DNA of 64,000 nt from Marsupella aquatica (Eukaryota; Plantae; Marchantiophyta), in the NCBI GenBank assembly GCA_973895155.1, contig OZ316891.1, forward strand, positions 29,866,331-29,930,330, read 5' to 3'. Made by a program: the position numbers and the translations under genes. Shown here piece after piece: positions 930 to 58,518 of this stretch (position 1 is its first letter; each line of letters opens with the position of its first letter). Under the pieces are notes generated by a model. The model was given only the letters and a program-made list of their open reading frames with translations, ran no database searches and was not told where the DNA came from.

Positions 930-976
930 CTTGGAGGTTTAAGGGTGCGAACCTCTTTGAAGGCTCATGGAACACT

Positions 977-986
977 CCCCTAAAGC
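977..986. repeat. Left target-site duplication CCCCTAAAGC (partner at 12551-12560)
   Basis: Identical 10-mer (11 with the next G) lies just outside both ends; 9-11 bp TSDs are typical of MULEs. Confidence 0.75.
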
Positions 987-2883
987 GGGGGTATTTACAA
1001 ACGACAGGAACCAGGAAACAGCAAACAGTTACTGTTACCAGGAGAAATGGAAAAAAGAACATGGGATTGAGTTCCATTATTTGGTCAAGAAGTTAAAAAA
1101 ACACCATCAATAAACCCCATTTTCAGTTGTTTTCAATACCACCATCCAATTGTCAAGGAAAGTAGGGGCCATTAGAATAAAGGTGTTGCCGAAAACCGGT
1201 GATGGCCAGCGCACAACGCTAGTATGCCGGCAGGGAAGGGCAAAAATTTAGGTATTCATAAAATAACGAAAAAGATGGAGATTCTACGTAACGTCAATCG
1301 AGAAGAGAACAGTAAAGTTAATGACCATTAGAAAAAGGCGTTGCCAAAAATATGCGGATATTAGCAGCGCCCAGCGCTAGTATGCTGGAAGAGATTGTCC
1401 GTCACATCAATCGAGAAGTGAACACAGGAAACTCAATTTGAAGCATTTCCAACAAAGAGAGGCAATGGCAGACGTTGAATATTTTCAGCGATGGGCGCTA
1501 CATTAAATGTCGGACCTCAAGAAATCAACGTCTAAACACGGAATACAATGACCATAGGCAGCGCTCGGCGCTAGCTCAAATCTAGGAATCAATGAATGAC
1601 CATGAAAGAACAAGAGAGCCGATCCAAAAGTGCATTCCTTAATTCCAAAATTGGTCAAAACATATAACCGGTATTACACCATCCGCAGATCATCTTCAAA
1701 TCAACCCACGACATAACATGAACATAAGCAGCGCTCGGCGCTAGCTTAAATCTAGCTATCTTAAATGTAGCCCGCCCTGGCCCGTATGTGCTTTATCTCG
1801 ACCTGAGCCGCACATAACAGGGCCGCTGATCCAAAATGGGCCAAAGATGGAGCCGGAAATACATGAACTTAGAATCACCCATAGAAGAAATCCCACGGTC
1901 CAAGACGAACAAAAGCAGCGATCGATGCTAGCTTAAATGGAAACCCTATGGCCACTGAAGCTTGTGTCACTGAAACCATCTCCGTCGTGAATAACTTTAG
2001 CTCTGCGATTGGCAGTCGTCGTCGATGCCCGCCCTGGCACGTCTGGGGTTTTGCTTGAAACCTAGACCCCTGAGACGCACATAAGAAGACGAGGGGCGCC
2101 AAAACTCCGAACTCTGATTCCCGGGGTCTGGAACATTTGTATCTAGGAAGTCAACACGTCCCAGTCGCTCTTGTACTCGTAGCTCAATAGGCTAAATACC
2201 ATCAGCAGGAATGAGAGAATGAAACGAAAACCGATCAACAACTGCGAGCGGAGTGTCCCGGTCGTTAATCCAAGGTAAGTTCCTCTCCCCGGGACTAATC
2301 GCCTCATCATAAGGAAGAGAAAAATGATTCCGGAAGGTCGAGGTCTCGCTGGATGTGTCACCATGAATGGACTCGAAGGAGCTAAAGTGACTCTCGTCCG
2401 GTCGAACTCTGGAAGGAGCAAAGAAGGCAAGCATCTCCTCCACAGACATGATCTCCTTCTTCTCCATCTGGTGGGCACTGTTAAACGCAATCGAGGCTAA
2501 TGACAAGACCGGTGGTGTTGAAATGACTCGACTTCGAGAGAGGTTGTGTTTGAAATAACTTGCAAGAGTGACCCAATGGAGAGTTTAGGTTCGGAGATCA
2601 GCAAAAACGTATCACAGAAAGGTTCAACGCAAAAAGGACCGTTGAGAAAGAGACGACTGTTCCGGTAGCGACAAAATATGCGGGGCCAAGGAACGGACGG
2701 AGGATTCAAAATTCGCAATTAGACAAATAGATGTTTGGGGAGCGCCCGGCGCTAGTAAGGGAAATGAGGAATTTAATCCATTTTATTATCAATGTAATGT
2801 AAACAAATCATATCTAATATAATAAATAAATGGATTAAGATAACAGCGCCCGGCGCTGGTAAAATGTAAGCCGAAAACACTCT

Positions 2884-3237
2884 TTAAGAATTGGACGATT
2901 CCGATTCGGAGCTCTGTGACCTCTCGGTAGAGACCGCCTCATCATCTACATACTTGCTCCTACAAACGTCGTCCACATAAGGATTTCGGACAAATTTTCT
3001 ATCAACTCCTCTTCGTAGCCGGAGACCTTTGTTTTCCCAACAAAGAGTCCTCTGATTGTCTTCCATTCTTGCAGCATTCTCAGCGTAAAAGGGTAAAACA
3101 AATGGTTTCTCCGGAGTGACAATTTCAAAACGAGCTACCTTTCTTCTGAGTTTGAAGCGTCTTCTCGTATTCCATTCGGACCTGGGTGAGAACAGAAGTT
3201 CGTCAACCGATTGTATGAATGGATATCACAAAGGCAT
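2884..3237 (-). pseudogene. Possible small third cargo ORF or exon (~117 codons, one in-frame TGA), unknown function
   Basis: ATG CCT TTG TGA TAT... reads through into ORF 2884..3066 (MPL*YPFIQSVDELLFSPRSEWNTRRRFKLRRK...SESESSNS). No family recognised. Confidence 0.3.
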
Positions 3238-3280
3238 GAAGGAACTGGAAAGGAGAAAGAAGCTTACGAGTTTCAGAACA

Positions 3281-6200
3281 TTACTCGGAAGAGTCATCGC
3301 TGTCACTCTGGCCAGCGGATTGTTCCTGACCCTTCCCCTCAGGTGTGCCATCCTCATCTTCGTCTACTGTACCACCACTTGACTCATCGTCAGAGTCAAA
3401 ATTGAGTACAGAATGGAGCTTGTCCCTCTTTTTCTTTTCGGGTGGCTGAATTGGGGGTGGCAAAGTTTCAACTTCCTTTGGAGAAAGTAGATCTAAGAAC
3501 ACCTTGGAACCAGTCTCAACGAAATCTTTCCTATTCTCCACTCCAATTACAAACCTCCCAGAATAGTCTCCAGCTACAAAAGAGCTACCCAACCCCACTG
3601 TCCAATCCATGAAAATATCCCTAGGACGAGTGATGAGCTCAATCACAGATTGCATGAATCCAACCGACAAACGGGCATTTCCAGCAAATTCCATCTCAGG
3701 TGTTGGATCGACTTTGAGAGAGGGAAGTCCAATTAAATTTGTTATTGAGGGATCTTCTGTGGCAGACAGAGGTCTAAACCTCGAGTCTTTTGGCACCTTC
3801 CCTTTTTCAGACACTCGAGAGAAGACGTCCAGCCTCAGCGTGAAGATCTGTAATATAACCCAAGCAAGGTATGTCAATGGATGCATTTGTAGACAATTTT
3901 TTAACGGCAAACCAGATGTCACAATGAGAAATTTACCTGTCGATCAGTCTTCGGCGCGTACATTGGAACTGACATGACAACATTGTGTGACGAGATGCAA
4001 TGAAACTTCTTTGAATCTTGACAAGCCGATATAACCTGAGACATCGGATCGTATTCCCCGTTATGTAAAATGGCCAGCATTCCGTCATCAGATAAAAATG
4101 GATCCATTCCACGAAAGAAAGATGTGGCCAAAGTGTGGTCAGGGACATTCCATTTAGGAACTTTTCTGTCTAGAAGAGATGGTTTAAGTCCTGTTGGAAG
4201 GTAGATGAAACCCGCGTGGACCCCAAACGATCTCTCCTTTCCACCACGCACAATGCCCTTCTCTCGAAAGCCAGACTTCATGAGATCCTTTCCCCACTTC
4301 TCTACACCATTCACCCAGTCAGGCTTCTCCCCTTTGTTAAACGTTGAGTTGTAGAATTCTGAGATGCTAGATTCAACAAGGCAATGCCTTGAAAGTCTAC
4401 TCTTGAAGTCCCCGACTTTGCGTTGAAGACCTACAGCAGCAGCACTTTCTCGAGAAGAAGATCCACCTTCAATGGTCCTTTTTCTCTTCTTCCTTGTACT
4501 GGTCGCATCCACCGGCGCGATCGCCTTCCCTTTGTCGGCGGGAGTAATTGGATCGGATGGTGCTCCGGTATTGGCTTCTGAAGCCTCTGGGGTGGCATCT
4601 ATCTTTGTATCTCCGCTCCCCACGGCGTCCGACTTTCTCCCTGTTCAAATGGATGTCAACGTGATATCCGTCAATAAAGAGACAACGACAATGCTAACTC
4701 CCAGCACTGGCCAAACTATCATAAGACTTGGCCTTAAATATACATCTTTCCGAGTAATAAATACCAATTCAGTTTCTAAAACATTGACTCTCATAACAGC
4801 GCCTGGCGCTAACAGATTTGGACTCCCATAGCAGCGCCGGGCGCTAACAATGTGACAGATATTGACTGCCATAGCAGCGCCGAGCGCTAACCAAAGGAAA
4901 CAAATTATACTTACATTTTTTCCCAGATCTTGTTGATTCACTTGGGGCCGTAGTATCTGCTCTTGCTTTGGCGCGAGGCTTCCTGCTTTGGTCAACATGA
5001 ACAATTGTTGTCTCGCATATTGTTTGCAATTCTGTTGTGGATTGATCCACATCATCCGGAAGTCCCTGCTTCATGTCAGAAACAACGTTGACTGGGATCT
5101 GGGACTTAGACAGCTTATGGAAAGCATCCTTTTCTCTGTGATCAAAGGGCGAGTCCCATCTATCTGTATCCAGGTACCATGGACAATGGGTTCTCTCCCA
5201 TTCACTCAAAGGTCTTGCTGGGAAAATTCCCTCGGCAGGATACATAGAATACAATTCAACTAAAGAATTACTCTCCGGTATGACAGTCCACTTGAGGAAG
5301 GCGACGGGATACGCCCAGAAGTAATCAGGATTGGTAGCCTCCATGTGGATGTAAAAACGGTAGAGATACCGTTTTGCTCGCTTCTGGTTCTTCAAAGAGT
5401 AATCCTCTTTGTTAGAATACTTCAAGGGCCACATTGTATTAAAAAACTTACCCTTGACAGAGTCACCGTATTTCCTCAAATCATTCGTAACTATTTCAAT
5501 GAGAGATTCGAATGATTCACATGCCCAATCTTGTAAGCGATTCACGGGAATGGTTTGTTGGACCTCTCGTAGAGCACATTGCAACATCCCCACCGCAATC
5601 CCTTCTACATTATTCCATGTAATCCAAGTGTGACACCACTATTTTACTGGATCATCATTGACGCTATTCGGATGGAAGAATTGTCTCCGGAGCTCCGGAT
5701 TGCAATGTGCTACAAGCAAAGTACTTCGTAGCTTGGCGTCAAGAGCCGAAACAGCTGTAAAAAGCCTGGCCCGGTCCATGGTACACAACACGGTATCTGG
5801 CTTCTTCTCTCGCTTATTCCTCTCCGTGACAACATACATCTCTGCGCACGTAGATAGAAAGTCCTCAAACTCTGGACTCAACAAAGGAGTGATTTTTGAG
5901 GTCTTAACTGCCCATTCCTTGGTTGCTTCCTTCATCATAACGGCATGCCTTCTGGAAACCTCCTCGACCGACCAAGGGGTACCGAGGGCCGCAGCGGACT
6001 CCATGTCAATCTTGAACTGGTTCGAATACGACTTAATCTTATCCTGACATAGAATGTACAAAAGAGCCTCCTGAGGCATCTTCTTTGTGTACCAGGATCC
6101 TTTTCGCGTCTTCACCCTGATCTGCTCAAACTTCTTGTAATTTGCAGGGTCGATGAGCTTACTATAGTACTCCAGGTCGTGCATCAAGATCCGCTTAATT

Positions 6201-7121
6201 CGATCGGCATCTAGGATCCAGGAGGGTTCCACAACTGCTTGTCCTAGCCTGAAATAAAAGAACGAAATGAGAACATATAAGCAGCGCCGGGCGCTCGCAA
6301 AACATGGCCTCAGAAAGTTATGCTAGAAAGAATGAACAATTCATAACGACTCACGAAGTTATGCACAAAAGGGTATCTTACTGGTTAACGGTGTGCATAG
6401 CCGCTTCGATTTCTATCAGCGAACCCTTGTCGCCATTGAAAATAGTACAAAGCACACACGGGTGGTACTTTGGGTTTTCGAGACTCTCTTGAGTGACAAG
6501 AGTCCACGAGTAAAGCCTATGGTTCCCGTCAAAAGTTGAGAACATTCTGTCCTTCAAAACTAGAAAATCTGGGTCGGCAGCACATTCTTCCTCGAATTTC
6601 TCGTTCTCAGATGTCCATATTGGATCCTAACTCTCATGAATTTCTTGAGTACAGGTGAGAAGCGCTCCCTCAGCATCGGTAGGCTGAACGTAAAACCTCG
6701 TTCCAATCGAAGAATTGTATCCCATGCTACGGAAAGAGTCTTTTAGCTTGTCAATGGAAGAACTGTCTTTCTGTAGAGTTTGGACAACCTCCATATGCAC
6801 CAATCGACATAGTGGAATTCGTGGAGGCTCTTTGTCAAACCCTCTGAAATCCTTCCCAAACGACATGACATGTTTTGAAATAAGATCCATCTCGGAAAAT
6901 GAAACATCTTGAATCGCAAATGTGTCAAGATTCTCCATCTTCTTTCTCACTGGTTTGGCAAACAAAATACTTGAGATTGGAACAAGCGATGCGGTGGACC
7001 TCGTTACTCGACGCGTATACACTGAACCAGAGAATGAAGACTCAGAAGACTCGCAATACCCACGATCCTGATCCCCAACCACACTATACCCCCTCGACGA
7101 GGAGGGGATTGCATCCATCAT
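3281..7121 (-). pseudogene. Transposon cargo gene: ParB/Srx-like N-terminal domain plus C-terminal beta-class N4C/N6A DNA methyltransferase-like domain; ~1114 codons, two premature stops
   Basis: Exons 7121-6382, 6248-4915, 4640-3937 and 3847-3281 joined by GT-AG introns give 3345 nt in one frame. In-frame TAG at 6627-6629 and 5639-5641. FSTFDGNHR lies at 6516-6542. IELITRPRDIFMDWTVGLGSSFVAGDYSGRFVIGVE resembles motif X-I of beta-class amino-MTases. Confidence 0.75.
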
Positions 7122-8042
7122 CTTTACGATGAAAGGTGTACGAACGGAATCCTCACGACTAATTACCAGTTCTCCGTACCATTAACAGTTGCGTCCGTAT
7201 TATATCCGATCAATGAGCGCTATTCCCCTCTTTGTAATCGGTTGGAGAGACGTTACTCATTGCGAACGACAAGATTCAATTTAATTTATCAGTGACGGAA
7301 AGCGACAATTTAGAAATTGCGATAAGTATTAATGTGAACTACCCTAAAATGTTTGCGTGATCATCACGCTGAACATTAGTTACCGTTAAATGTTTCCGTT
7401 GTCTCAACACCTTGCAGACAAACATGCAATGCCAGCACCGGGCGCTAACAAATAAGAGACTACCAAATTGAAGAACTTATAGGTGAACAAATGCTAGCGC
7501 CCGGCGCTAGCCATTTGAATAATTTCATTAACGTTCTTTTTAAGTAACAGATATTGTCAACAAACTCCTAAATGTACCTCTTTCACCTGTAGTAACCAAA
7601 ATTTACTTGATATTATGAGATTAAGTATATTGTATCAATACTAGCGCCTGGCGCTAGTAACAATTTACTGTATTTGCATCAATATTTCGTGTGTAATTAT
7701 GCTAGCGCCAGGCGCTAGTCAGAAGACTTTTCAAATTATGTCATTGTTATTCCAATGGCTTTTAGGTAGCGCCTGGCGCTAATGAAATGGACGCACTTGT
7801 ATAGACTACTATCTAGTCGTATTCATGTAATAAATATTCCTGACACCCGCACTTGACGGGCAAAAACGACAAATGTATCATTTATGATTTCAACGGACGC
7901 AAAGTTGTGCGTGTTCTATGTCGTATTGAAACGTCTCTTTCAACAGCCGGTGGTCCTTGAAGGGGTGTTATAAGCACAAGAAATATGGTTGGGATTGGGC
8001 TATTGCATGAATTACTTCTGGCCTAAACTTCTTTCGTCTACA
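7122..8042. promoter_or_regulatory. Divergent promoter region between cargo gene and transposase, with five palindromic motifs
   Basis: AT-rich spacer between head-to-head ATGs. (T)AGCGCCNGGCGCTA copies at ~7433, 7494, 7641, 7701 and 7768. Confidence 0.6.
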
Positions 8043-11000
8043 ATGTCGCGCTCAATTGTTATTACACGTGCTTGTACCCGGGAAGTCGTCAAAGTTCCCG
8101 TGCAGGTTTCTGATACTTATAGGCAAGTAAGCGAGAACTACCTGTGCGAGAGATTCGATTTGAGAATCAATGACATTCTGTCGATTGTTCCTGAGGAGTC
8201 ATCGAGTGGAGGACTTGAACCAGCTGCGGCATTTGATGTGGATGACGGAATACATTTCTGGCACATGAATGTAGGACTTTGTTACACGCTTCATGTCAGA
8301 CCTACTCCTCTTCAATCGGTTGTTCAGGACATTCCGCCCCAGGTTGTTGAAATATCTGAGAGTGAAGATGAGGAAGTTGCGCCCAATCCTCCTGAGAAGC
8401 ACAAAGCTCCAAGCTCTAGTTGCCTTAAGAGTGAACCGGTGGCCACTTCCGGAGATGTCCAGAAGGTTTACCAGCGGAGTGCAATGGACACCTTACTCAA
8501 GGCCACGGGCCATAGTGAACTGTCAAGATTTATCTCGGCAGGGGACTTTCGACACGATCAAGTTCCTTGTTTGCCAAACAAGTACAACGGAAATATTGTA
8601 TTTGAATTGCCTCCCATTGTGGGAATGCAGTCCAAAGGATCTAGACTTCGTGACATGGACCGTGCCAAAGATTGTTACATTTGGACCAGGATTTTTCCGA
8701 CGACCGCAAACGTGCAACCAAAAAAACACTGGGAGTTTGGTAAAGTCAGTTGTACTGGGTTCGTCGAGTGCAGGAACAAGTCCTGTGAATATTTTTTGCG
8801 AAAGAAGAGATGCAATTTGAAAGCGTGGGCTGGTACCCCTAAGCTTAGTGGCCAGCATGTGGTGGGTTCGTTCATTGAAGAGGGTGGTATAGTATGTCAC
8901 TACTGTGAAAAGATTCCTTTTTGTGTGGACTCTTGCCCTGCTCGCTTGTTCTATATGTATCCACAGGTACTACTTGATACGGAAACCTGTAGTCACATGT
9001 CTCGACTCGCAGTCCATATAGGTGAACATAACCATCCGAGTAGAAAAGTTTTCTCCAGGAGTGCTGAAAAGATGGCCGAGGACTTAATAAAAAGAAATCA
9101 CAAAGCCAATCCTCTTGCAAAACCGGCTGGGATTTTGAATTCGGCGACTAGTTCGCTTGTGAAAGCTCTTTGCGAGAACATTGACGACATCGTAGATATT
9201 GAAGAAACCAAAATTTGGAAGTCTCTCATGGTTCTATCTACTCCTCAGAAATTTGCGTCCCTTTGTCGCAGCGTTCGAATGGACCAGGCTGGTCGTGGTG
9301 AGTTAGATTTCCTAGCTCAAATGCAAAGGTCAAATAATATTTCTTTTCTCCAAAGGTATCTTCTTCCGGGTCAGGGTTGTTTAGCAGATCGTCCCCACAT
9401 ATTCAAAATGTCAGTCAAGGGTCATGGATCTGGTGTAGATCTTTTACGTCAGATGCAACCTGGCGGAAGACTGGAAGGGGCTTGGGTGAGTTTTGATGTC
9501 ATGAAGCGAGTGACAACCGACTGGTTTACTTTTAGCGCACACGTTTACGATCACAACTTTCAAGCTCTTTGTACAATATTCACATGCGAACTAAAAGCTG
9601 AAGACACAGAGTCCTTTGAGAAGGCATGGAGAATTATGATAGAGGTTTGTAAGGAAAATGGGTTACATGAGGTTACCATTCAAGGTTTTATGGCCGACAA
9701 TGCTCAGGCTGGATGGATTGCCGTTCGCAATGTCTTTTTTGGGGGTCACCCAGACCCTGAACGTGAACGCTCCAATGCATTCCACTTTTACCAGTCTTTC
9801 CATCGACATTCCACGGAGGGAGTACTCGAGGGTAGGCAACCTGAACATCTAAGACTGTGGGAGAAATTGCGAAATGCTCCATCATTCGTTGCGGCGTACC
9901 GAGTTTCTAGGGAGATTGTGTTATGGTGGCAAGCAGGCAATTGTGTTCCAGGAAAACTGATGATGTTGCAGAGTTGGATATCATGGTGGGTCGTTCGATG
10001 GCGTCAGTGGGGGAATTTCATTCGCGTGGTAAGTTTTATCAATGCTTACAATAGTCACTTCGCCATGTTTTTTACTAGCGCCTGGCGCTGCTTTTAACTG
10101 TACAGATGCCAACATTATATTATTACATCATACACAATGCTAGCGCCTAGCGCTACTTTAAAATGTACAGAGAACTTTGCCACATTCATGACTTATGAAC
10201 ACTTGATAATACCAACATTACATTAATGTATATTATATACATTGCTAGCGCCTGGTGCTGCTTAAACAAATTGACTAAAGTTGGTCTGGATCCACTTCAT
10301 TGCAGAGCAAAAGCGCAGAAGAAGGTGCCCTCATTCCAAACTGTACAGCATCTGAGTCAAGGCACGCTTCAATGAAAGCATGGGCAACCAAAAAAATGGT
10401 GGGCCTCTTCGAAGCATGCGAAGTTGATCAAAATCGGGCTATATCTCAAGTTGCGGGTTACAGTGCATATCGGAAAGGACTCAATAGAGGGAAGGGGCCA
10501 ACTATCTGGGAATTGGCATTCCGTTCGGCAGACCAAGCAGGTTCACCCAAGTTATTCGAAGAAGCCACTAACATGATTCTTTCCAACTCTGCCGATTTTG
10601 ATCTGGGTAGGAATTCTCCTCTGAATGGAGATATTGTCACCAAATCGGTTAAGAGGAAGGGACTTGCAACTGGGATTGTCTCGCCACAAGACTCCCATCG
10701 GCATGACACCATTCTCATCACTACCCCAAATACTCGAGGATTCAAACGGAAGAATCTCAACAAGACTGAGTTCACTTCCATTCCCGCCAATGTAGTAGAT
10801 CCTGTAGTAGACCTCTGCGGGAGTGACACTTCAACAAGTGAAAGCGATTCCCTTGCGAACACCCCTGAAGCCACGAGGGAAACAACATCATCTCAACAAC
10901 CACGCAGTGCCCCCGCTGTGGTTCAACGTTTGCCGACAGAATCAGCTCCATTGGAAATGGACGTTCCAAGAGGAAGCTGGCATTTGAGACGGACGGCCAA

Positions 11001-11832
11001 ATATGGGGCAAGGCCACAGTGTAATAGGACCTTGTATGGAAATTCTGACAGAGATGAGTGTCGAAATCGTGTCAAGAAAATAGGGTTCCATTCTGCTGCC
11101 GGTGTTGTCGGCATTGTTGTTAGCGGACATCGCATTTTCAGAGGAACTCCCATTGCCGAAATGATATGGTTCTGCCCAAACAGCACATGCTACAAGAGCC
11201 GCCCGCGTCGCGGTGTTGAACGCCTTCCTCCTGTGCCGGACATCCTGCCAGTTGTGAAAGGAACAAACCTCTCGCCTGGCGAGATAGAGTACCTTCAAGC
11301 GCAGGGAGTCTCTATGGTCCAAACAGCTGCGACCTCTCGAACTCGAACTGCACCATTTGCATTCGACTTGAGAATCAATGTTAACACATTTCCAGAGAAA
11401 ATCAATTTTGCGGAGCCCAACGTGCGCCTTCGTAGCAGGAATGGGAGGAACTCCAGACCTCGCTCTAATCTAACTGTGGCTCACAGTAAACGAATGGAGT
11501 CGGCTCGAAAAGAAACTATGACTCTGGATGGAGAGTGGGATGTGATTAGTGGAATTGCTTTTGGGAAACAATTCAGAATACGGACTCACGAGAACCTTCG
11601 ATCGCCAAACACTTACTTTGTCCAAATGTGCATCTTCCCTACTTGTTCCTGTGAGGATTTCTTCCGTCGTCATTCCCGCGGCAAGCTGTATATGCCCTGT
11701 AAACATTTGTACAGGGTGTTCATAAATGTCTTCAAGTTTCATGTAGAGGAGTCTACCCTGTGTAGCCAGCCGATTTTGACAGTTGGAGAAGTCAGACTTG
11801 TGTTGGAGAGGCACAACGCAAATGGTTTATAG
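8043..11832 (+). CDS. MULE-family DDE transposase with N-terminal GCM/WRKY-like zinc finger and C-terminal SWIM finger, ~1170 aa, two exons
   Basis: Exon 1 8043-10028, intron GTAAGT..TTGCAG 10029-10305, exon 2 10306-11832, in frame with no stops. Motifs: CTGFVECRNKSC..CHYC..CPAR..HIGEHNHP; D1 VSFDVMK (9495), D2 FMADNAQA (9696), xxFH, E in ASESRH (10354); SWIM CSCEDF..CKH. Start codon inferred. Confidence 0.85.
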
Positions 11833-12867
11833 AGGGACTCGATTTATCCTTAACTGTCGTATTCCATAACGGATACTATGTTGTTTTGTCTTTAGTCAAC
11901 GGATATTACTTTAGTTTTTTATGTGGTTTTGGTTAGCGTCGGGCGCTGGTCAATAACTTATTTATAAAATTTTGTTTTCTCTGGTTAGTGCCATTGGATG
12001 GTTCCATAAGCTTTTATTATCGTCCCATTATTCTGCGTACTTAATCCTTTGTTAGCGCCTGGCGCTAGTTTCACACTCTGCCTGACAGACCCCTATGTTT
12101 CCGATAACATAATTCAGTCTACAACTGGCTTTGTGGTGGGTCCCGCCTGAGCATACTCCATCCCTCCATGGGTATTATGGTTAGCCTTTTTTTTAACCAC
12201 ACTAATGAAGTATATGAACTAAATGAAGCATTTAAAAGTGGACTGTTTAGAAATGTTGCTGTATATAAACAGCAGTGAATTGAATGACAACCCTTTTTTA
12301 TCTATAATCTGAGCAAGTGACAATGGATTGGAACCTCTCCGAGCAACTGTGAGCACACTTTTCCCTTATATCTGACGTCGTGTCTTATGCCAGTAGGAAT
12401 GTTTTTAGCTTAAGTATGTGGTTGTTCCTTACGTGAATTTTTGAAAAACTTTGCCAAATAGTACACCTTTACAATAACAATTTCCTGTTACTAGGAGATT
12501 ACCTGGTAACAGGAAAACTGTTTCCTGTCTCCACTGCTATACCCCCTAACCCCCTAAAGCGACGCTGTCATCTGCTGGAGATGTGTTTCGATCGAGAACT
12601 TCATCGAGCGTTCGATCTTTCTCTCGATCCCGTCCGAAAACTTGACACACCTTTTTAGTCGCAGCGAGCAATGTGCGATTCGAAGGGAACACATACAGTG
12701 GATGAGAATCACGATTCTTGAAAGCAGGGGAAGTACGTATGACTCACTCGTAAATTGAATCACCTTTGTTTGAACAGACCTCAACATTTTATCGTCTACC
12801 TGCACTAGATATAGCCTCGGAAATCTAGTACTGTTGCACTCATCGACACAATCGAACTCAATCGTGT

Positions 12868-13248: not shown

Positions 13249-16200
13249 TTATACAACGTGTGCTTTGTTTGCAGAGTCACAAACAATTGCTATTGGGGTA
13301 TGAATAATAGTCTTGACTAGGTCAGGCTGAGCTTGGCTGTACAATGTCTGAACATACTCAGCTGCTCGTTCAGCCTGGTCTGCAGCAGCAAAAGCCACAC
13401 AGCAGCCTCGAAAACCAGCTCCACTGAAACGAGCCCCGAGAACACCTGGGGCATCGAGAAGGATCTTCCGTAGCTGAACTAATGGGTCACAACCTGCAAG
13501 CACAAAGATCTAGTAGTAAAAAATGTCTGCCACTAAAAGCCTGTGCTATGCCTGAGATAGTCTACGACTCGCTAACGTTTGCAGTTCTTGAAATGTTGAG
13601 ACCAATCACTTTACATTTGGTGCTGTAGCATGCAGGACTGATCAATTGAATCCAAATTCAAATTGCAACCAGGGTTGGAGGATTTCATGGAAAACACAAA
13701 GCAAGCTTAAAGAAACGGCGTTTTATCGAAGTATAAACTAATGACTCACCACACTCGTAGTTCTCAATCGAACTCAGTCCAGACTCTGACATCAATTTGC
13801 CAAATTTGATTAGATCTCCCGACGACCAAGCATCTACTCCTGCACAGAAAAGAATTCATCTGGTAAATTTGTCTCGTCACTAGACTTTGGAAATGGCATC
13901 TTGATAGACTATAGGGTCAAAAATACTATGGCGGTGTTTCCAAACAATTAATGGATGCGATGTCCAAAGAAAACCATGTAATGGCAGTTGATCAAAAGAA
14001 CTCCCCTCGGCAGAACTTGGAATCATCTGATCACACGGTACAACAAAGTACCGATATTTTCGCAGTGGAAGACATACCTGCATGCACTCGGGAACTTTCA
14101 CTGAAGAAGTGTTCTGCTCTTCTAGCCAGGGTTCCTTCTAATACCCCCTGCATATAAGTGCAGATCTTTGCGTGGTCAACAAATCTATTAATTTAAGTTT
14201 GGATTTCCATATCTTGACAAACAGTTCAACGATCCTAGCACACTACATCTATAGAGCTACTTTCTGAGTTGAACGAAGAAAAGGATATGCAATGTTAGGT
14301 GAACTATTGTGGTGGGGGGCGGGGATAATCTTTGCAGTGAAACAGCCAATTCAGTCCAAGGTTTACTGGATGAGCAGCTTGACCATCACCTTATGCTCCA
14401 TATATTCCTCTGGGGTTACTGTAGAACAGCCATCAAAGAATACTCTCAGAAAACTACTTCAACATACAATGCGTTAACTGAGAGGAAAGGAGGGAAATAA
14501 AGCAAAACAAAACAATTTAATGAGCAGTGATAACACATCTATTTCAGTACAGGGGCATATAGGAACTTATACCATTGCACAGTAGGGGTTCACTTGAATC
14601 TCTGCCAACGGATCTGAGAGAGCAAGGAAATCTCAGTGATTTGCTAATCGGAAGATTGCCGTTAAAGGAGTAAACCTTTCATACTTTCTCGAGTCGGCAT
14701 CTTTGGGTGCATTCATTCGACCAATACATCGATTCCGCAGTTACTGCCAGAAAAAGAATACTCTAAAGTAGAGGCAAATCTATGTGTGATAGAGATCGCG
14801 CTTGTCAAAAATTTCAAAGCTTAGAAAACTCAAAGTCTCACAAGATCGGAAAAATTAAGTGAGCGTACAAGACAGGTCTCCGGAATATGACCTTCAAATC
14901 TGGCTACCAGAGTCTCTGTTCTTCTATCTGGCTACACATTTTTTTGGTTGCCATAGGTGAAGTTCAATTTACTGAGAACTGTGCATTATTCCTTTTACAA
15001 GTGATTCCTCTACAGGACACAATTTCATGGAGACAAGAACTTCTTGCCATTCTTTTCATTCCCAAGGAGCCCTTCACCTGAGAAGTTTTTTGGCTGCATT
15101 GCGGCACTCACTGACCCGCATGTTATACCCAGGACTTTGCGCTAGTGCATGCCGAAGACCAGAGAAAGCAAGAAGTATTTTGTAGTCTTTCCCTTCACCC
15201 TGCAAAGGATCATTCTTCTCGCACCTTGGTGGAACCACTATCTCATAAGTACGATCCTGCAGACGAGATGAGTTGGTTACTGTGTCTCAATACTTCAAAA
15301 AACATTTCGCACAATTACTGTGAAGAGGGGCACAACTGCAAGATCCATAAGTGTTGAAGAACATACTCGGCAGTGAATAAGACTAAGACAGTTCCGTTTT
15401 GAGAGCAGAATTGCTGACTGATCAAGCACTCCAATATGCAACCCCAAATAGTCATTCTCAATGAGTCTGCAATAAACCAAAGACAGAATTAAGAGCAAGA
15501 GCTTTTTGTCGTCCTAAAATTCATCGTAACAAGTTCCCGAGACCACCAGCCAAAAATTTCGGACCTACAGCTGAAAATGATATGCCACATAGTCGTCCGA
15601 TGAGTATACGGGGCACTGTTTAAGAAAGATTCAAAGTAACCAATACTTATTTCGTAAACATACAAGATTCTTATTTCATAGGGCTCTTGTCAAAAAGTAC
15701 TCAAACATGCATGCATCAGTTTACCTGTCAAGTTCTATATTTTCTTCTTCAGAAATATGAAGACCATTGACGTGCTCCAGGGCTAGCAAGAAAGCAACCC
15801 CAACCTGTCAAAAAGCACCTCAGCTAAAGATTCTCAAGTCTGAAATTCCTTAGGTCGATATGTCAAGATGAACAAGCTAAGTGTATCCTTGGAGAAGCTT
15901 CAATCAGATATCCTAAAAGTTCATTAACGTACTGCTGCAGACGAGCTCACACCTCCCCCGTCAAACCCTCTTGACCCCTCCAAGTATCCAAACATTCCCT
16001 GTCAAGATAAACAAGGCTTGGGTCAAGAAGGACTATCGTACCCCCAAGTACCTACATGATGGCCAACTGCCCGCCAAAACCACCAGGACAGAAGCTACTA
16101 TCCTCCTACCGAATTTGTGAGAAACAACTCCTGGTCAACGACAACTGTCAACCACTACATTCTCAAGCAGGAATGTGACAGCGCAATCTGCATATGAAAT

Positions 16201-24824: not shown

Positions 24825-27800
24825 CTAAATATGTAAAGAGGACATTTCCAATGTAGCTTGGGAAGTGTGCGCGGTAAAATCATTTAGCTTAGATGCTGAT
24901 GATGGGTCGGAAGATACTGCTAACGCTTGTAACATGTTCAACACATTTGACGGATCATCTAGATAATACTTTGCCTTGCTGGGTTTCTCCCCCACAGTGC
25001 AAGCAATCACTTCGGCCAATGGGGATTGTGGAGGCTCTGACATCGCGGTTTCAATACTTTCAAACATATCCTCATCTGACCTATCATCTCCAATACACAG
25101 AACGAAATCAGGTGGTGAACCCTGCTCTGCCATGAGTGATAACAGTCGCTCTCCAATGACTCCTTTGCTGACACCCTGTGTAAAAAACCATAGGGCCATT
25201 GAAATTAGTACCAAAGAATATATCTATACAAAACGGTTTCGCATCGCGCAATAAACTTTGGGGACGAACAAAAAACGACGGGAAGCCAGATGTAAATGAA
25301 AACTTCAATCAAGTTTTCACAATACCTGCGGTTTAACTTCTACAATATGGTGGCCACTCTTCACAGCCACCGGCTCATTTGCGAGAACACTTTCTAAATG
25401 ATCCAGGAGCTCTTTGGCCTGCCAAGATCCGAAGTCCGGGTCTGCATCTTGATAGTGCCAGACAATAGCACTTTCTTTCTCTTCTATGTTCGACCCATCT
25501 GTTGCCTCTCTGTACAACTTCAACACAGGGAGAGCAACGTCTTTCCACTCAAAACCTGGAACATTTACTGACGTCGTCCAATCATCTTCTTTTCTCCACC
25601 TGCATTGCATTGCAAGGCCGGGTTAGCAAGTCAGGACGATTGAAAATTTAGCAGTCGTAATCAAAAAGCTGCAACCATGCCGCAGGTCCCAAAATGAAAT
25701 CTTTTCACGGTAGCATAACATTGCATGAACAGAAAGATTGAACACAAAATACGTTCATTACTTCCGTTTTACTTGTGCTTCGGCAACAGAGACGGTGCGG
25801 TTATAGACAGACCCACAATTTCCTTTTATTTTCATGTTTGGATCACTTTCAAAACAAGTCCTTCCGTCTTCACTGCATTGCAGAAAATATTTCTCATGGT
25901 TTGAATTCCCTAGTTCCCATATCTTCAAGTTGCCGATCAAGCTTAGGGCTGGGCTGCTGGGCCGCTTCCAATCCCACCAGGCTACACTGCCGAAGAGTAG
26001 ATTTCATTCTCTACGACTGGAGAAGTACCGGAGGCTTCTATCCGCAATCACATCTTCTTGAGGAAGGCTCTTGATAACACCATTACACCTAAAGCTCCAT
26101 CAAATCCATCAAATTACACAACTAAATGTGACCTAAAGCCCAGTTCGATATGACAAATTGACGCTATCTCACTCAGTGACTCTAGTTTGTACTATACTCC
26201 GATTTTTAATCTTGACATTCCTTCTAAATTTCACTTTAGCCTACGCGAGAAGACCGGTGAATTATCCAGAATGGGAATCTAGACAGCTAATGGTCTGCAT
26301 TGCATCGCATTGACAGGTTGGACCAAACCGTGCATACCTGTAATAGAAGCCATGCTCTGCTGCAATCCCCAAACGGTCGCACGATTCAAACCAGTCAGAG
26401 AGAGGCGCCCGCCCTCGTCCACTAACGATGAAAACAACATTCTTTTCGTCGCTACAGATCGTGTTCAAAAGCTCCAAAACAGACGCACCGGGCTTCTTGT
26501 TGAGGGAGGTCTGGGGCATCATGGTGCCGTCATAATCCAGCAGAATGAGTCTCTTCTTACTCTTCTGGTACGCGGCAACTACGAAGTCCGTTTGCAGCTT
26601 CCGGAAATTGGGGTCTAGAGCCACCACCTTGAAACTCAGGCCGAATCCAATGCCATACGACGCCCGCCGTTGGTGCTCTCTGCAGGTGCGTTCCAAATCC
26701 CCCATAAAACTCTGAGCCCAGTAGGCGACGTCATGTGTGCTGACATACTTGAAGTGCTTCTCATGCCGCATTTGCTTCTCGGTATTGGGCAGCGTGATGG
26801 CCGTGTTTAGCGCATCTGCCATGGCCTCGATATTCCAAGGATTGACCCGAATAGCTCCACTCAGAGATGGTGAACAGCCAATGAACTCCGAGACAATCAG
26901 TGTACTATTACGTCCAGCACCACTCTCAGCACTACCTGATACGGAGTAAAGAGGAGGAGATGACCCCACCTGGGGCATTTGGGGCTCAGCCTCCAAAGAA
27001 GTAATACCCTCCCGGCAAACAATGTACTCATAGGGGATGAGATTCATCCCGTCTCGGACTGGTGTGACCACACAGCAGTCAGCTATGGCGTAATAGGCAA
27101 TCCTCTCATACAGAGGTACACTCCTCTCCAGGAGCACCACCGGTTGGTACCCTTCCCAGCCAAACTCCCTGTTAATTCTCCGGGCAATAGTGCTGGCCTC
27201 GTTCTGAATTTCCTGCACCTCCTTGCCTTGGCCTCTCGCCGGGTTGACGATTTGGATAAGCACCACCCTGCCCCTTCTCTCGTCATGCTGCCGTAGCAGC
27301 TGCTCCATGGCCAGTAGCTTGAGCCCAATGCCTTTGAAAATATCCATGTCGTCCACTCCCAGGAGGATGGTTCTCCCACCATATTCGGCCTTGAGCTCCC
27401 CAGCCCTCCACCCGGTTTCCTTGCTATTGAGCCTGGAGGTCAGCTGGCCCATGTGGACACCCACAGGCATGATCTTGATGCCCACGGTCCTCCCGTAGTA
27501 CTCCAATCCCATGTACCCTCGCTTGGATTCATAGACGAGGCCCAGCATTCGGCTACAGCATGACAAAAAATGTCTGGCGTAGTCAAATGTATGGAAGCCA
27601 ACGAGATCGGCATTCAGCAGGGCTCGGAGGATTTCGTCCCGCACTGGTAGAGTACGGTAAATTTCCGAAGATGGGAAGGGGCTGTGGAGAAAGAAGCCCA
27701 GCTTAATTTTGTTGAACCGCCTTCGGAGCATTGTGGGGAGGACGAGGAGATGGTAATCATGGATCCAGACGAAATCGTCCTCTGAGGCAATGACCTCGAG

Positions 27801-28466
27801 CACTTTCTCACCGAATACCCGGTTAGCCGAGACATAAGCCTGCCAGAAGGTGCGGTTGAAGCGACCTCCGTGATTCGGAGTGAGGGGAAGCATGTAGTGG
27901 AAGAGCGGCCACAATTGCTGCTTGCAGAAGCCGTTGTAGAAATCTGCTGTTAATCTGGCCGACAAGAATGCCGGCACGCAGTTGAACTTCTCCAGGAGAG
28001 TGGCAGCCACTTCGTCCTGCTCGCTCAAGTCTACCTCCACCTTCAAAGTCCCGATGTAGATTACCTCCATGTCATCCGCCAGCCCAGACTTGAGCTGGAG
28101 AAGGAGTGAGTCTTCATCAAAGGTGAAGCTCCAGGCGGTGTCTTCAGCGTTGCGCTGTGCATTCACCGGGAGCCTGTGTGCCACTATGATTACACGCTCG
28201 TAGCCGAGATGAGACGAGGGAGCCTCGGAAGTCACGCTACTGCTCTTCTCATCACTGATGGTATCTCCTTTGCCGTCTGATAGAATACCAGGTACTGTGT
28301 TCACCCTGGGAAGCTTGCCGGTGCGCCCAATGCGAACTCCTCCTCCTCCAGTTCCACCACCTACTCCTTTTTCTCCTACTCCTCCTCGTCTTCCTGTTCC
28401 CAGAGAACCCATATCCCCCGGTCCCATGGAAAGATCCAAGAGATTGGCATACGATCTTGACACCAT
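24825..28466 (-). CDS. TPS: Class II trehalose-6-phosphate synthase/phosphatase (TPS5-11-like), 917 aa, three exons
   Basis: Exons 28466-26338, 25599-25326 and 25175-24825 total 2754 nt. Motifs MVSRSYANLLDL, WIHDYHL, GFFLHSPFPSSEIYRTLP, RDGMNL, LDYDGTM, EVKPQGVSKG, GDDRSDEDMF. The two-intron layout is typical of class II TPS. Confidence 0.95.
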
Positions 28467-29776
28467 CCCTTCTCCACCTCCCTGATTTCCTGCTCGCCGA
28501 CCACCAAAACCTCACTCGCTGCCCCTGCCACCTCGTCTGCTAATAAATTGAGCTTAGGATTCAAGCTGATTTGCAACATTGATCGGGTAATTCTTCCTCA
28601 TTAATTTGCCCCTCGTCTGCTAACGTCTCCTGCCTAATTTTGGCCTTCGTCTAACTATGGTGTTTTATGAAACACTATCCACCATCAGGGATACTGCTGC
28701 TGCTGCTGCTACAACTGCTTCCTCCTGACCATCCTGTCGACATGAAGAACAAATCGAATAGCAGCTGTGATACTCAAATCTTCAAATTCCTTGCCCCGCC
28801 TCACAATAGCCTGCTGTGAGGACGAAACGCTAGGCTCGGAAACGGAAGGAACGTCACCAATTCAACTGCCATCCAAAAGTATCTGAGAACTGCTGCTGTC
28901 GCTGCTGCTGGGATTGGCACTTTCCAACCCCTCCCGCCCCCTCCCTTAAAACCAACCCGAAAAAACTCTGCGTGTCTCAATGGCAAACCTCCCAGGGGTG
29001 GACTTTGCGTGCACGCCCACTGTCGGAACTACCACACTCTGATTTCCTTCTTCGGCTGGCTCCTTTGCCTCGCTTTGGTTTCCTGGCTGGCTGCCTCGAC
29101 CTGGCTTTCGCTTGCACTGAAGCCGGGAGACAAAGTGGATATTGTTATTCAAAGCGAAACGGTTCCTTTCCATCAAACTTGCTCTCCATCTTTGCTCTCT
29201 ATCAACACTGGCCCTCTGCCGCCCACAAAAGTCGTTTCAATCTATGCTTACATCTGCTAGAAAGCAACGTACCTTCCAGCACAGAGACGAGCAAAATCCA
29301 CGAGGAACGGGACAGCTCAGCGGAAACAGGAGGGCCGAAGTCGATCCACGGAAGCAGATCAGAAATCACTCACAATTCTCCTTTACATTTGCTCCTCTGT
29401 GACATTAATGCCGCTCACCGGCAGTAAACACGGTCATCGCTTGTCCAAAATCCTGTCAAACCAGGCCACGGATTTCAAGCAGTACTTGTGCACCACCACC
29501 ACCACCGCCACCGCCGCCGCCGCTCACTTAACACGCTCGATCAAAAACCCAGCTGGGAAACGGAGAGTGCGTAAAAAGAATGAAGAAAGCCAACCGTCCT
29601 GAGTGCAACAAGACCAGACCAGGCTTCGTTTAGTTCGGTCCGGTTTGGTTTGTTAGGAGGCAAACACAAAGAAGACGAGAAGAAGAATGTCAGTCGCCGC
29701 AAGTGGCAGCCGTTTCCTTCACAGAAAGAATGGAGGATGATCACTCCTTCCTCTCCAGCGCGATGAGGAGGCCACG

Positions 29777-36129: not shown

Positions 36130-38740
36130 CAAACAAAAAAAAATTGTGAATACTTGTTTATTAGCGAAGCCACCGCGGTGAAGACCAGCGCGGCAGAAAA
36201 CAACCACACCGAGGGCCTCACACACCCCAAACTGAGACAACATGCCAAAAGCCACCCCAACAGTTCACAAGGTCACCTCCTAAAGAAGGACCAAGGGGGG
36301 AGAAAGCAAAAAAACTAAGCAACTCAACAGGGAAACAATGCACCGGCCGCAAGCAAATGGGGGCCCCAATACTGGAATGAATAGAGCTCCAACAGCAAGT
36401 ACCCAAGCTATGCGTGACTAGTGCCAATAGAAGCCCTAGCAGTCAATTTAGTGAGTTCAAGAAGGGTCTGATGTAACCTTTTGGCCTTCTGCACACTGTG
36501 AGTCCGCTGGAGGGTACCATGAACTTGAACAGCAGCATTGTTGAGAATGATGTGCAAAGGAAACCTGGTAGAGGTAGCATGATACGTGCGTTGCTGTTGC
36601 TCAACCCAGATGGTGCTAAGCATCTCGTGAATGAGGATCAGGAAGCCAGGGTTGCGCTTTTGGGACCTTATAGCAGTGTCAATCTTGCCAAAGGAGCAAC
36701 CAACAGCCTTGTTTAGACTGGTGCCAATAGCAATGATTTCAAGATGAGACCAACGGGGCCGCAACCTAGCCAGGACAATCATAGAACAAGTGTTCAATGG
36801 TCTCCGTGTGTCCTTGGCAGGGGGTGCAATGGCCATTGCTCACCGTCCATTTCAAAGCACGCAAATTGGAGAAAAACCTTGCATGGAGTACCTTCCAAAA
36901 CACGAGTTTAACAATAGGAGAGGTCCAACCTTTCCAAAGATGAGTCCACCGGCTCCTCCAGAGTTCTTGTGTGTCAAGAGAGAACCACCTATGATTGAGT
37001 TGGACCATGGGGGTAAGTTGTTGTTGCACCATTGTCGCCCACATCCGAGCCCACATCTTGGTAGGAAGGTGCCACCTTCTCTTCACACCAGTGGGCCATT
37101 TCCAAACCCACCCCTCAGATGTGAGGAGTCTCCCCATTGTTGGCCTCTTGGAGGTGTTCAAAAGACCAAGGATTTGTGGAAGAAGTCAAGTAGCGCTATG
37201 TCTGGTCAATTGAAGCGAACCTTGGACCTGTTCTAGAGTTTTCCAGCCATGACCAGGTGTGGAGAGGTTGTCCACAGTGCAAGCCACAGTGAAGACCTTG
37301 CTGGTGGCAAGAAAACTCATACCAACCCGCATCTCGGTGTCTGTGACAGTCAGCTGTTGATCCATAAGGATGAGAAATTGTGCAATTGATAGGGAACGAG
37401 GAATTTTCCCAGCAACTGTGCTAAAGTGGAGATGACAATAGGAGAGCTCCCAACCCCTAAGCAGACAGTTGAGGGTAGGTGCACACGCTACCTTCAAGCT
37501 AGGGGAGAGAAGGAGAAGATCAGTAGGGTCCCAGAATTTCCTCTCCTTACGATGAGGCCCTGTCCCTGCTGTGAGTGTGATCAATGACCTAGCCATGTTC
37601 ACCCAGGCAGTGTCAAAGCCAGTGAGGAGCTTAGTGATACTCCTCATCTTACACACGCGGGACTGAATCTCATAAGATCTGATGGTTAATCCCCCATCTG
37701 CATATGGTCTAGTAGTAGTGTCCCAAGCAACCAAAGCTTTTTTGGGAGCACCTTCTGAAGTGTGGCCCCAGAAGAAGATGCGACAAACCCGTTCTAATTG
37801 CTGGTACCTTGTCTTTTGGGTATTGAGAAGCATAAGATGATAGACAGGAATTGCCAGAAGGACATGCTTCAGTATGACCAACCTGCCAGCTTGAGTGAGG
37901 GTCCTATTGGTCCAATGCCGCAATCGCTTCCTGACTTTGCCCAAAAGAAACTTGACCTCTTGGCTAGGCTTGATGTGCGTGCCAATAGGACAACCCCAGT
38001 AGATGATGACCTCCCCCTTAACAGCAATACGGCACCTAGTGTGTTGAAACCAATCAGATTGGGCTGAATTGTCAAGCTGTATGATAACCAATTTGTCAAT
38101 GTTAAGAAGAGCACCAGAGACTCTCTCATAGGTATGCATAGCGTTGCATGCAATAACAAATTCCTCTTCGGTGGCTTTGAGAAAAAGACCAGTGTCATCA
38201 GCAAAGAGTTGATAGAACAACTTGCTGCCATCTCCAGTGTTGAGCCCCATCAATTCTCCAGCTGTCAATTCTCGGGGGTTTCACTTCCACAAAAATGACA
38301 TATCACATGCGACGAAGGATAGGGTCATTTTATTGGTTCTAAGGGAAGACTTAAGAATTTTTGTAGAAGACCAATAGGGTCTTTTAAATTCAATTTGAGA
38401 CTTATAAGAACATTAGGTTCTTATTAATCCAATTTTTAGAATATTCCAAAAATATTCCAACTTTATAGGGGTTAAAAAATAAAATAAAATTCTTACATTT
38501 TAGGGGGTCCGAGGCCTAAACACGTCGCAGGCGATGGGGAGGTCCCCATATAGTGAGACCCCCGAGTGTCAATTTAGCTTCAAGTAGACACATCAAGGGC
38601 TGAGTGGCTAGTGCAAATAGCAGCGGGGCAGTTGGGCACCCCTGCCTAACCACACGCTCCAATAAGATCTCTTTAGTAAAGCCTCCATTGACATGGACCT
38701 TGGAAATAGCATCAAGAACCAGACCTTGGATCTAGATTTT
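36130..38740 (-). mobile_element. 5'-truncated, degenerate L1-like LINE (RT C-terminal part plus zf-RVT), interrupted by a MITE
   Basis: RQGCPTAPLLF (~38610-38650), QLFADDT, YERVSGALLN, AIPVYHL, FFWG, GGL, then WKVLH..C..CQGHTETIEHLFYDC; contains stops and frame changes. The 3' boundary is approximate. Confidence 0.85.
38271..38566. mobile_element. 296-bp MITE with 15-bp TIRs and 8-bp TSD
   Basis: CTCGGGGGTTTCACT ... AGTGAGACCCCCGAG (14/15 inverted match), flanked by TGTCAATT at 38263-38270 and 38567-38574. Removing it restores the LINE frame (EAKLTAG). Confidence 0.9.
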
Positions 38741-58300: not shown

Positions 58301-58518
58301 TGCTGCTTTCGTGGTACACGGCTGTACAGCTCTTGTGCGAAGCTGTCCGTATCTCTGGAATCGGGGAGATAGCTGTGAAGCTCGGTGATGAGCTGCTTCG
58401 TTGACGATGCCTTCTTGGCCAGACCTAGCACGAAGGAAATGACTGGTGGCAGCGAGTAACCCAACAAGGCATGCAACTGGTCTGATACCCATGCTCTCAT
58501 CTCCTTATCCTCCGCCAT
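55336..58518 (-). CDS. DHX16: Pre-mRNA splicing factor DEAH-box RNA helicase (Prp2/DHX16/ESP3-like), 1060 aa, single exon
   Basis: N-terminal [14 protein letters not shown]-like region; [47 protein letters not shown], then HA2/OB-fold C-terminus. ATG taken at 58518 (MAEDKEM). Confidence 0.95.

Follow-up and report, generated by a model that had tools for sequence, protein, structure and literature searches.

The VANDAL transposons of Arabidopsis are Mutator-type elements with poor terminal repeats and an accessory gene, VANC, for which an anti-silencing function was shown, and family-specific short motifs are found in their introns, between the genes and in the non-coding DNA of their ends, partly by way of tandem repeats (PMC5735166). 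The accessory protein of Sola1-1_Ec32 from Ectocarpus, encoded on the strand opposite the transposase, comprises about 1100-1200 amino acids (aa) with ParB-like and N4C/N6A methyltransferase-like parts and was proposed to methylate its own element (PMC12477816). Likewise, Plavaka PAG3 of the red alga Bostrychia features a ParB-like accessory protein together with inverted-repeat arrays, which were proposed as parS-like sites (10.1101/2025.02.11.637652). In bacteria, the ParB-family proteins KorB, acting at OB of RK2 (PMC11790492), and Shigella VirB, an anti-silencer (PMC10164555), regulate genes of mobile elements from palindromic sites. Both the combination of a ParB accessory gene with inverted repeats and motif-based anti-silencing are already in print. 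Here, a Mutator-like DNA transposon of the liverwort Marsupella aquatica is described, which lies in a stretch of 64,000 nucleotides of contig OZ316891.1 (assembly GCA_973895155.1, positions 29,866,331 to 29,930,330 of the forward strand), referred to as the window. The element carries two head-to-head genes, an accessory gene on the minus strand and a transposase gene on the plus strand, and one recurrent palindrome in its non-coding parts that may be the binding site of the accessory protein.

In the 64-kb window, the palindrome AGCGC-N3-GCGCT matches exactly 16 times (0.01 expected; 0 of 100 shuffled sequences reach 16), and 21 copies are found with up to one mismatch (0.52 expected), all between 1208 and 12066. 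Gene models were built from GT-AG sites and open frames, and none of the 21 sites overlaps an exon of this predicted splicing, with non-coding DNA making up 38% of the element (p = 1.6e-9). The original prediction of an enriched palindrome confined to the non-coding parts of the transposon is thereby confirmed, and its distribution over left arm, accessory introns (three and one), divergent promoter (five), transposase intron (three) and right arm (two) was reproduced (Table 1). Two of its statements require adjustment. Approximately 22 copies had been counted, the last of which (1917) is a site with three mismatches; and the absence of copies from the other 52 kb holds at up to one mismatch, but with two mismatches seven more copies appear, six outside the element and one in the transposase coding sequence. 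No site was detected in accessory introns 3 and 4 (89 and 103 bp) or in the terminal 220 (left) and 480 (right) bases of the element. Site density peaks at the divergent promoter, and neighbouring sites along the element are never more than 2.3 kb apart.

Taken together, the 21 sites give the 19-bp palindromic consensus RSY-AGCGCY-N-RGCGCT-RSY. The three-base spacer assumed at first is indeed fixed in length, as spacers of 0-2 and 4-8 bases gave no match, but it is not free in sequence: its consensus C-N-G extends the site to a 6-1-6 palindrome with three more conserved bases per side. Selection had been suspected from the position of GC-rich sites in AT-rich introns. The non-coding DNA turned out to be only moderately AT-rich (GC 0.39, vs. 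0.47 in the exons of the element), and selection is backed indirectly by comparisons of sites and copies. Around the 21 sites, most flanks show no relationship to one another (median identity 0.33; at least 0.55 in three of 210 pairs), and the palindrome has therefore outlasted its surroundings. Still, contigs show gain or loss of units, and the neighbouring sites at 1560 and 1730 share their flanks (70%). Variation among copies was assessed for the region 7400-7820 in four runs of two studies, using 40 of 64 variant rows (39 positions). Of 60 motif positions two carry variants, and of 356 others 36 do (p 0.064); one more variant lies at the central N. One of the two motif variants is a private change of the window copy, without which p becomes 0.019, and at C/G positions only, the ratio is 1/49 in the motif to 19/111 elsewhere (p 0.004). 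Among copies, the palindrome thus varies less than neighbouring DNA, as the prediction implied, with support that is modest because the cuts are post hoc and 24 of the 64 rows lie outside the count. The consensus base is the one found in most other copies at 7437 and 10256.

Scanning metagenome contigs for relatives revealed a homologous ParB domain at 75 loci, or at 50 after merging near-identical ones. A methyltransferase half follows 1-3 kb downstream of ParB in 10 of the 50, and a transposase of the same family stands head-to-head with the ParB gene in six, many loci being too short to tell. The motif of the window occurs in none of the 75. Another recurrent palindrome is present in at least five copies in 6/50 loci and in at least four copies in 9/50; shuffles reach at most two, and no control has five or more (0/6 window pieces and 0/22 distal flanks, 0/28 in total), with one control reaching four. 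These palindromes measure 18-20 bp and occupy the same kinds of places as in the window element. They read AGGTGCC-N6-GGCACCT in locus L006 (17 sites), TATTGGC-N6-GCCAATA in L020, AACTTT-N8-AAAGTT in L022 and L036, TACTTT-N8-AAAGTA in L030, ATATG-N8-CATAT in L024 and AAGCC-N4-GGCTT in L001, the closest locus, where they form a satellite in the matching intron. Several of these arrays are tandem repeats, which inflates the counts. In the AACTTT/TACTTT loci, the sites are located either 0.5-1.4 kb upstream of the ParB match or 1.3-2.8 kb downstream of it. Both genes are present in L022 and L024, and there every site adjoins or sits inside the ParB gene.

When 62 ParB domains were placed on a quick tree with no rows dropped, the AACTTT/TACTTT type falls into one clade of 21 (support 89 by the Shimodaira-Hasegawa-like approximate likelihood ratio test). 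A matrix built from three AACTTT/TACTTT loci, in a test that was not blind, recovered 22 sites in eight of the 18 other clade loci and none in 31 sequences outside. The L006 matrix recognized one of four close relatives and none of 47 others; with the L024 matrix, the sister of that locus, L070, was recovered together with one marginal site outside. Of 55 locus pairs, only 10 have flanks that align. Hence, the type of palindrome appears to follow the ParB tree, which points to lineage specificity. This match cannot name the binder, since kin share labels and the accessory gene and the transposase are inherited together. Pattern scans of viral contigs and prokaryote genomes detected no relatives. 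Two features of the relatives may be recorded separately. In L001 (484-990), a satellite made of inverted half-sites in alternation enlarges the counterpart of accessory intron 1 to approximately 820 bp. The palindromes of L020, L022, L030, L036 and others, from different lineages, have the same 8-mer YGRYRYCR at their centre but differing outer arms, and this centre shows many changes of CG to TG or CA.

The accessory gene was modelled with five exons and 1212 codons, with in-frame stops at codons 165 (Trp in homologs) and 450 (Gln in L001). Named homologs originate from Calypogeia fissa. A ParB/Srx fold is predicted for the N-terminal domain: the GxxR motif of ParB is present as GNHR(L) in 14/14 aligned sequences, the top Foldseek matches of the modelled homolog P0047 are all sulfiredoxin (Srx), ParB, KorB or Noc, and KorB is its best structural match (root-mean-square deviation 2.7 over 92 aligned residues). 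Twelve sequences conserve a segment of about 70 aa behind this domain. For the C-terminal part, the similarity is to beta-class adenine methyltransferases (DpnA, E 0.0016; CcrM, E 6e-5 by Foldseek with the model of homolog P0014), and its catalytic half precedes the half for binding of S-adenosylmethionine (SAM). The catalytic motif of amino-methyltransferases is [D/N/S]PP[Y/F/W]; it occurs in 0/26 aligned sequences, 25 of which feature xLPx or xFPx instead, and judged from this alignment it is missing across the family. The usual targets of methyltransferases are also far shorter than a site of 19-20 bp. Searches of the ESM Atlas returned only unnamed bacterial clusters at low recognition for exon 2 and weak methyltransferase leads for exon 3. 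No useful match came from PDB sequences when they were searched with profiles of the methyltransferase, ParB, transposase and post-ParB alignments, a search for longer proteins with exon 1 found no match among 786 candidates, and Pfam scans of the exons revealed no VANC family. Other ParB-linked methyltransferases are listed elsewhere (PMC4738411). The 4mC (N4-methylcytosine) enzymes of Marchantia and rotifers were discarded as models, being described as active and without ParB. No ParA partner ATPase is encoded among the only two long genes of the element; orphan ParB proteins are described as common, and the choice of nucleotide as not predictable from sequence (PMC12704722).

A possible third, small open reading frame of 91 aa from ATG (window 2192-2467, minus strand) is located behind the sites 2741 and 2845. 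It has a weak DUF5030 match below the cutoff, and gap-free alignments of run X1 contigs, at about 80%, cover 2115-2450.

A long palindrome of fixed geometry which is present in all kinds of non-coding space and changes between lineages suggests a dimeric binder encoded by the element. This part of the original prediction, which had left the choice between accessory protein and transposase, is backed indirectly by the fixed geometry, the exclusion from exons, the lower variation and the lineage-specific palindromes; the accessory protein is favoured, but not separated from the transposase. Our preferred reading, for which we see slightly less than an even chance, is that the ParB-fold accessory protein binds the palindromes as sites specific to its lineage and probably keeps the genes of the element expressed by self-regulation or anti-silencing. 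The accessory protein is favoured because ParB proteins read palindromes (PMC12704722), because the element ends lack the site, because the sites of L022 and L024 lie only by the ParB gene and because ParB is combined with inverted repeats on another transposon superfamily. Regulation is favoured as a function because the layout resembles that of VANC sites, the VANC21 sites in VANDAL21 showing the same placement pattern (PMC5735166), and because KorB and VirB control genes of mobile elements.

Accordingly worded as a model, it is the accessory protein, not the transposase, that would bind the palindromes as a dimer, and a nucleotide switch might let it load and spread from there in the manner of ParB at parS. 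By analogy with VANC and VirB, the bound protein would keep the element genes expressed against host silencing or would serve self-regulation, with the methyltransferase half as a possible reader or scaffold instead of a writer. Due to its broken accessory gene, the window copy would have to be served in trans by other copies. Binding as such is putative, and we infer all steps from there onward. Several observations weigh against this interpretation. The ParB match remains below Z 8 (Z 7.2) with Foldseek E values of 0.065 or weaker, and the segment behind the ParB domain matched no family or structure, so that neither a helix-turn-helix nor any other DNA-binding domain was recognized there. 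A recurrent palindrome is missing from 36/50 related loci, many of them short or decayed, and the arrays of L001, L006, L020 and L036 are tandem repeats. The conservation test is borderline on its plainest count. From near to far from the sites, CpG observed/expected values are 0.87, 0.96 and 0.82, without a rise near the sites and thus without a sign of local protection from methylation. Finally, the joint inheritance of accessory gene and transposase would fit either of them as the binder.

The same protein might bind the same sites in an architectural role, by coating, compacting or bridging the element for pairing of its ends or by tethering the excised element. Degenerate terminal repeats and sites along the whole element would suit this role, as would the spreading of ParB clamps along DNA (PMC12704722). 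We nevertheless consider it unlikely, as site density peaks at the divergent promoter, and upstream of the ParB gene in the relatives, which fits gene control better, and the ends to be paired carry no sites.

Equally improbable is binding by the transposase through its own zinc DNA-binding domain, for recognition of ends or self-activation, with the accessory gene as a passenger. The transposase frame is intact (1170 aa), unlike the accessory gene of the window copy, and five sites are located in or behind the transposase gene. The transposase has five homologs at 42-69% identity; two aspartates and sets of Cys/His are conserved in five to six homologs, and the SWIM-like pattern was recognized by eye. 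No match was obtained in Pfam, NCBIfam or PDB-sequence searches, and the reading as Mutator-like is based on the motifs and the length of the target-site duplication. The 5' open reading frame of L006 received no support as a transposase start (hhalign probability 3%). Mutator transposases carry DNA-binding domains of the WRKY-GCM1 type (PMC1702500), and in Arabidopsis the AtMu1 transposase is by itself able to activate and demethylate its cognate copies, yet its peaks are reported at terminal repeats (10.64898/2026.08.24.746577), which is where the present element lacks the motif. Moreover, L022 and L024 have no site near the transposase, albeit as two loci only, and in another superfamily, too, ParB accessory genes come together with palindromes (10.1101/2025.02.11.637652).

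An origin as sites of a host transcription factor or as neutral leftovers of local tandem duplication appears quite improbable. The shared flanks of 1560 and 1730, the gain or loss of units among contigs and the tandem arrays of several relatives agree with it, but the motif is absent from the other 52 kb of host DNA, differs between lineages and stays while its flanks diverge. That the palindrome is a target marked with 4mC or N6-methyladenine (6mA) by the accessory methyltransferase, as the prediction had offered and as was proposed for algal ParB-methyltransferase genes (PMC12477816), is very improbable despite the similarity to CcrM and DpnA, given the missing catalytic motif in all 26 aligned sequences and the length of the site.

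The element is flanked by a 10-bp target-site duplication, which agrees with the 8-11 bp known for Mutator-like elements (PMC6446971). The duplication is present as a single copy in an empty-site contig: one contig of run X4 joins 957 to 12551 via 18 flank letters. Contigs of mixed identity on the stretch number 2178 (X1), 2849 (X2) and 4989 (X4), and the summed depth, which here does not equal copy number, drops more than 10-fold beyond 12606 in all three runs; these thousands of contigs and the fall in depth indicate a multi-copy family. The element ends share an 8-bp perfect match offset by four bases and weak gapped similarity over approximately 170 bp. As the right end (12539-12560) extends four bases past the terminal match, its exact position is ambiguous by a few bases. 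The target site contains the plant telomere-type word CCCTAAA. Words of the CAGGAAA type cluster at both ends; being common in the window (29 copies), they are not claimed as a terminal transposase motif.

Table 1. Features of the transposon and its palindromes (window positions)
Feature	Position	Strand	Remarks
Mutator-like DNA transposon, whole	987..12550		11,564 bp; multi-copy; from contig cover, depth drop and empty site
Left target-site duplication	977..986	+	10 bp, identical to 12551-12560
Right target-site duplication	12551..12560	+	10 bp, identical to left duplication
Left end, degenerate terminal inverted repeat	987..1185	+	weak gapped alignment to right end; no palindrome copy
Right end, degenerate terminal inverted repeat	12360..12550	-	weak gapped alignment to left end; no palindrome copy
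Palindrome cluster, left arm	1208..1929		copies at 1208, 1366, 1487, 1560, 1730; degenerate 1917
Two palindromes just downstream of accessory stop	2741..2857		copies at 2741, 2845
Three palindromes, accessory intron 2	4798..4888		intron 4641-4914
One palindrome, accessory intron 1	6283..6295		intron 6249-6381
Five palindromes between divergent start codons	7434..7780
Three palindromes, transposase intron	10077..10259		intron 10029-10305
Two palindromes, right arm	11935..12066
Accessory exon 1	6382..7121	-	predicted ParB/Srx-fold domain, invariant DGNHRL; in-frame stop codon 165
Accessory exon 2	4915..6248	-	conserved middle region, fold unmatched; in-frame stop codon 450
Accessory exon 3	3937..4640	-	predicted first half of amino-methyltransferase fold; catalytic motif replaced by xLPx
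Accessory exon 4	3285..3847	-	predicted SAM-binding half of methyltransferase fold; acidic tail
Accessory exon 5	2884..3181	-	splice model only; no homolog found
Transposase exon 1	8043..10028	+	Cys/His zinc region, two conserved aspartates; motif reading
Transposase exon 2	10306..11832	+	candidate catalytic glutamate, SWIM-like CxC...CxH finger; motif reading

CpG depletion is weaker in the element (0.76-0.85) than in the remaining window (0.53), perhaps as a sign of its youth or of lower methylation. Just left of the element, at 797-915, a 53-bp perfect direct repeat with a period of 66 bp is found. The neighbouring genes, all on the minus strand and named by eye, are presumably a GHMP sugar-kinase exon (13249-13509), a class II trehalose-phosphate synthase (26262-28511), a fragment of a long interspersed nuclear element (37186-38280) and an intron-free DEAH splicing helicase of 1060 aa, Prp2-like (55336-58668).

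Compared with the described systems, the element resembles VANDAL and VANC in its Mutator-like character, its poorly matched ends, its accessory gene and the placement of its motifs. Nevertheless, VANC motifs comprise 8-9 bp and are non-palindromic (PMC5735166), whereas the window family and its relatives show palindromes of 18-20 bp, and predicted folds and Pfam scans set the putative ParB and pseudo-methyltransferase protein apart from VANC. Sola1-1_Ec32, compared by its description, agrees in accessory protein size, domains and strand, but belongs to another transposase superfamily and host, and the methylation proposed for it (PMC12477816) contrasts with the missing catalytic motif of the window family; the string 'palindrom' has 0 occurrences in the main text of that paper. 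Plavaka PAG3 differs by its EnSpm-type transposase, by the fusion of ParB to a 2-oxoglutarate (2OG) oxygenase and by arrays that adjoin the gene, in contrast to sites dispersed through the non-coding parts, and the passages compared (10.1101/2025.02.11.637652) give no lineage-specific code. KorB and VirB are bacterial proteins with a known helix-turn-helix and a cytidine triphosphate switch (PMC11790492; PMC10164555), whereas the accessory protein is known from sequence and models only, and OB (TTTAGCGGCTAAA) is only loosely similar to the palindrome. Like ParB-parS systems, the element combines a palindrome of about 16-20 bp with a gene, on that same DNA, for a protein with the predicted ParB/Srx fold and the GxxR motif. 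The literature covered, which excludes most subscription papers and the algal supplements (the latter may bear on this point), describes no land-plant system, no catalytically dead version and no lineage-specific palindromes.

In its boldest form, our interpretation would have bryophyte transposons run a borrowed ParB-parS system in the nucleus, with a nucleotide-gated sliding clamp, a family-specific palindrome as its loading site, a spreading shield against silencing and at least six orthogonal, co-diversified pairs, which we regard as possible but rather doubtful. If the preferred reading holds, the sequence-specific self-marking of transposons by a protein of their own would have evolved once more, from bacterial partition machinery and outside the flowering plants. 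The proposal for algal ParB accessory genes, untested so far, would become a direct experiment, since each protein lineage has a named site of 18-20 bp. Moreover, orthogonal pairs of protein and site on plant chromatin could serve as tools.

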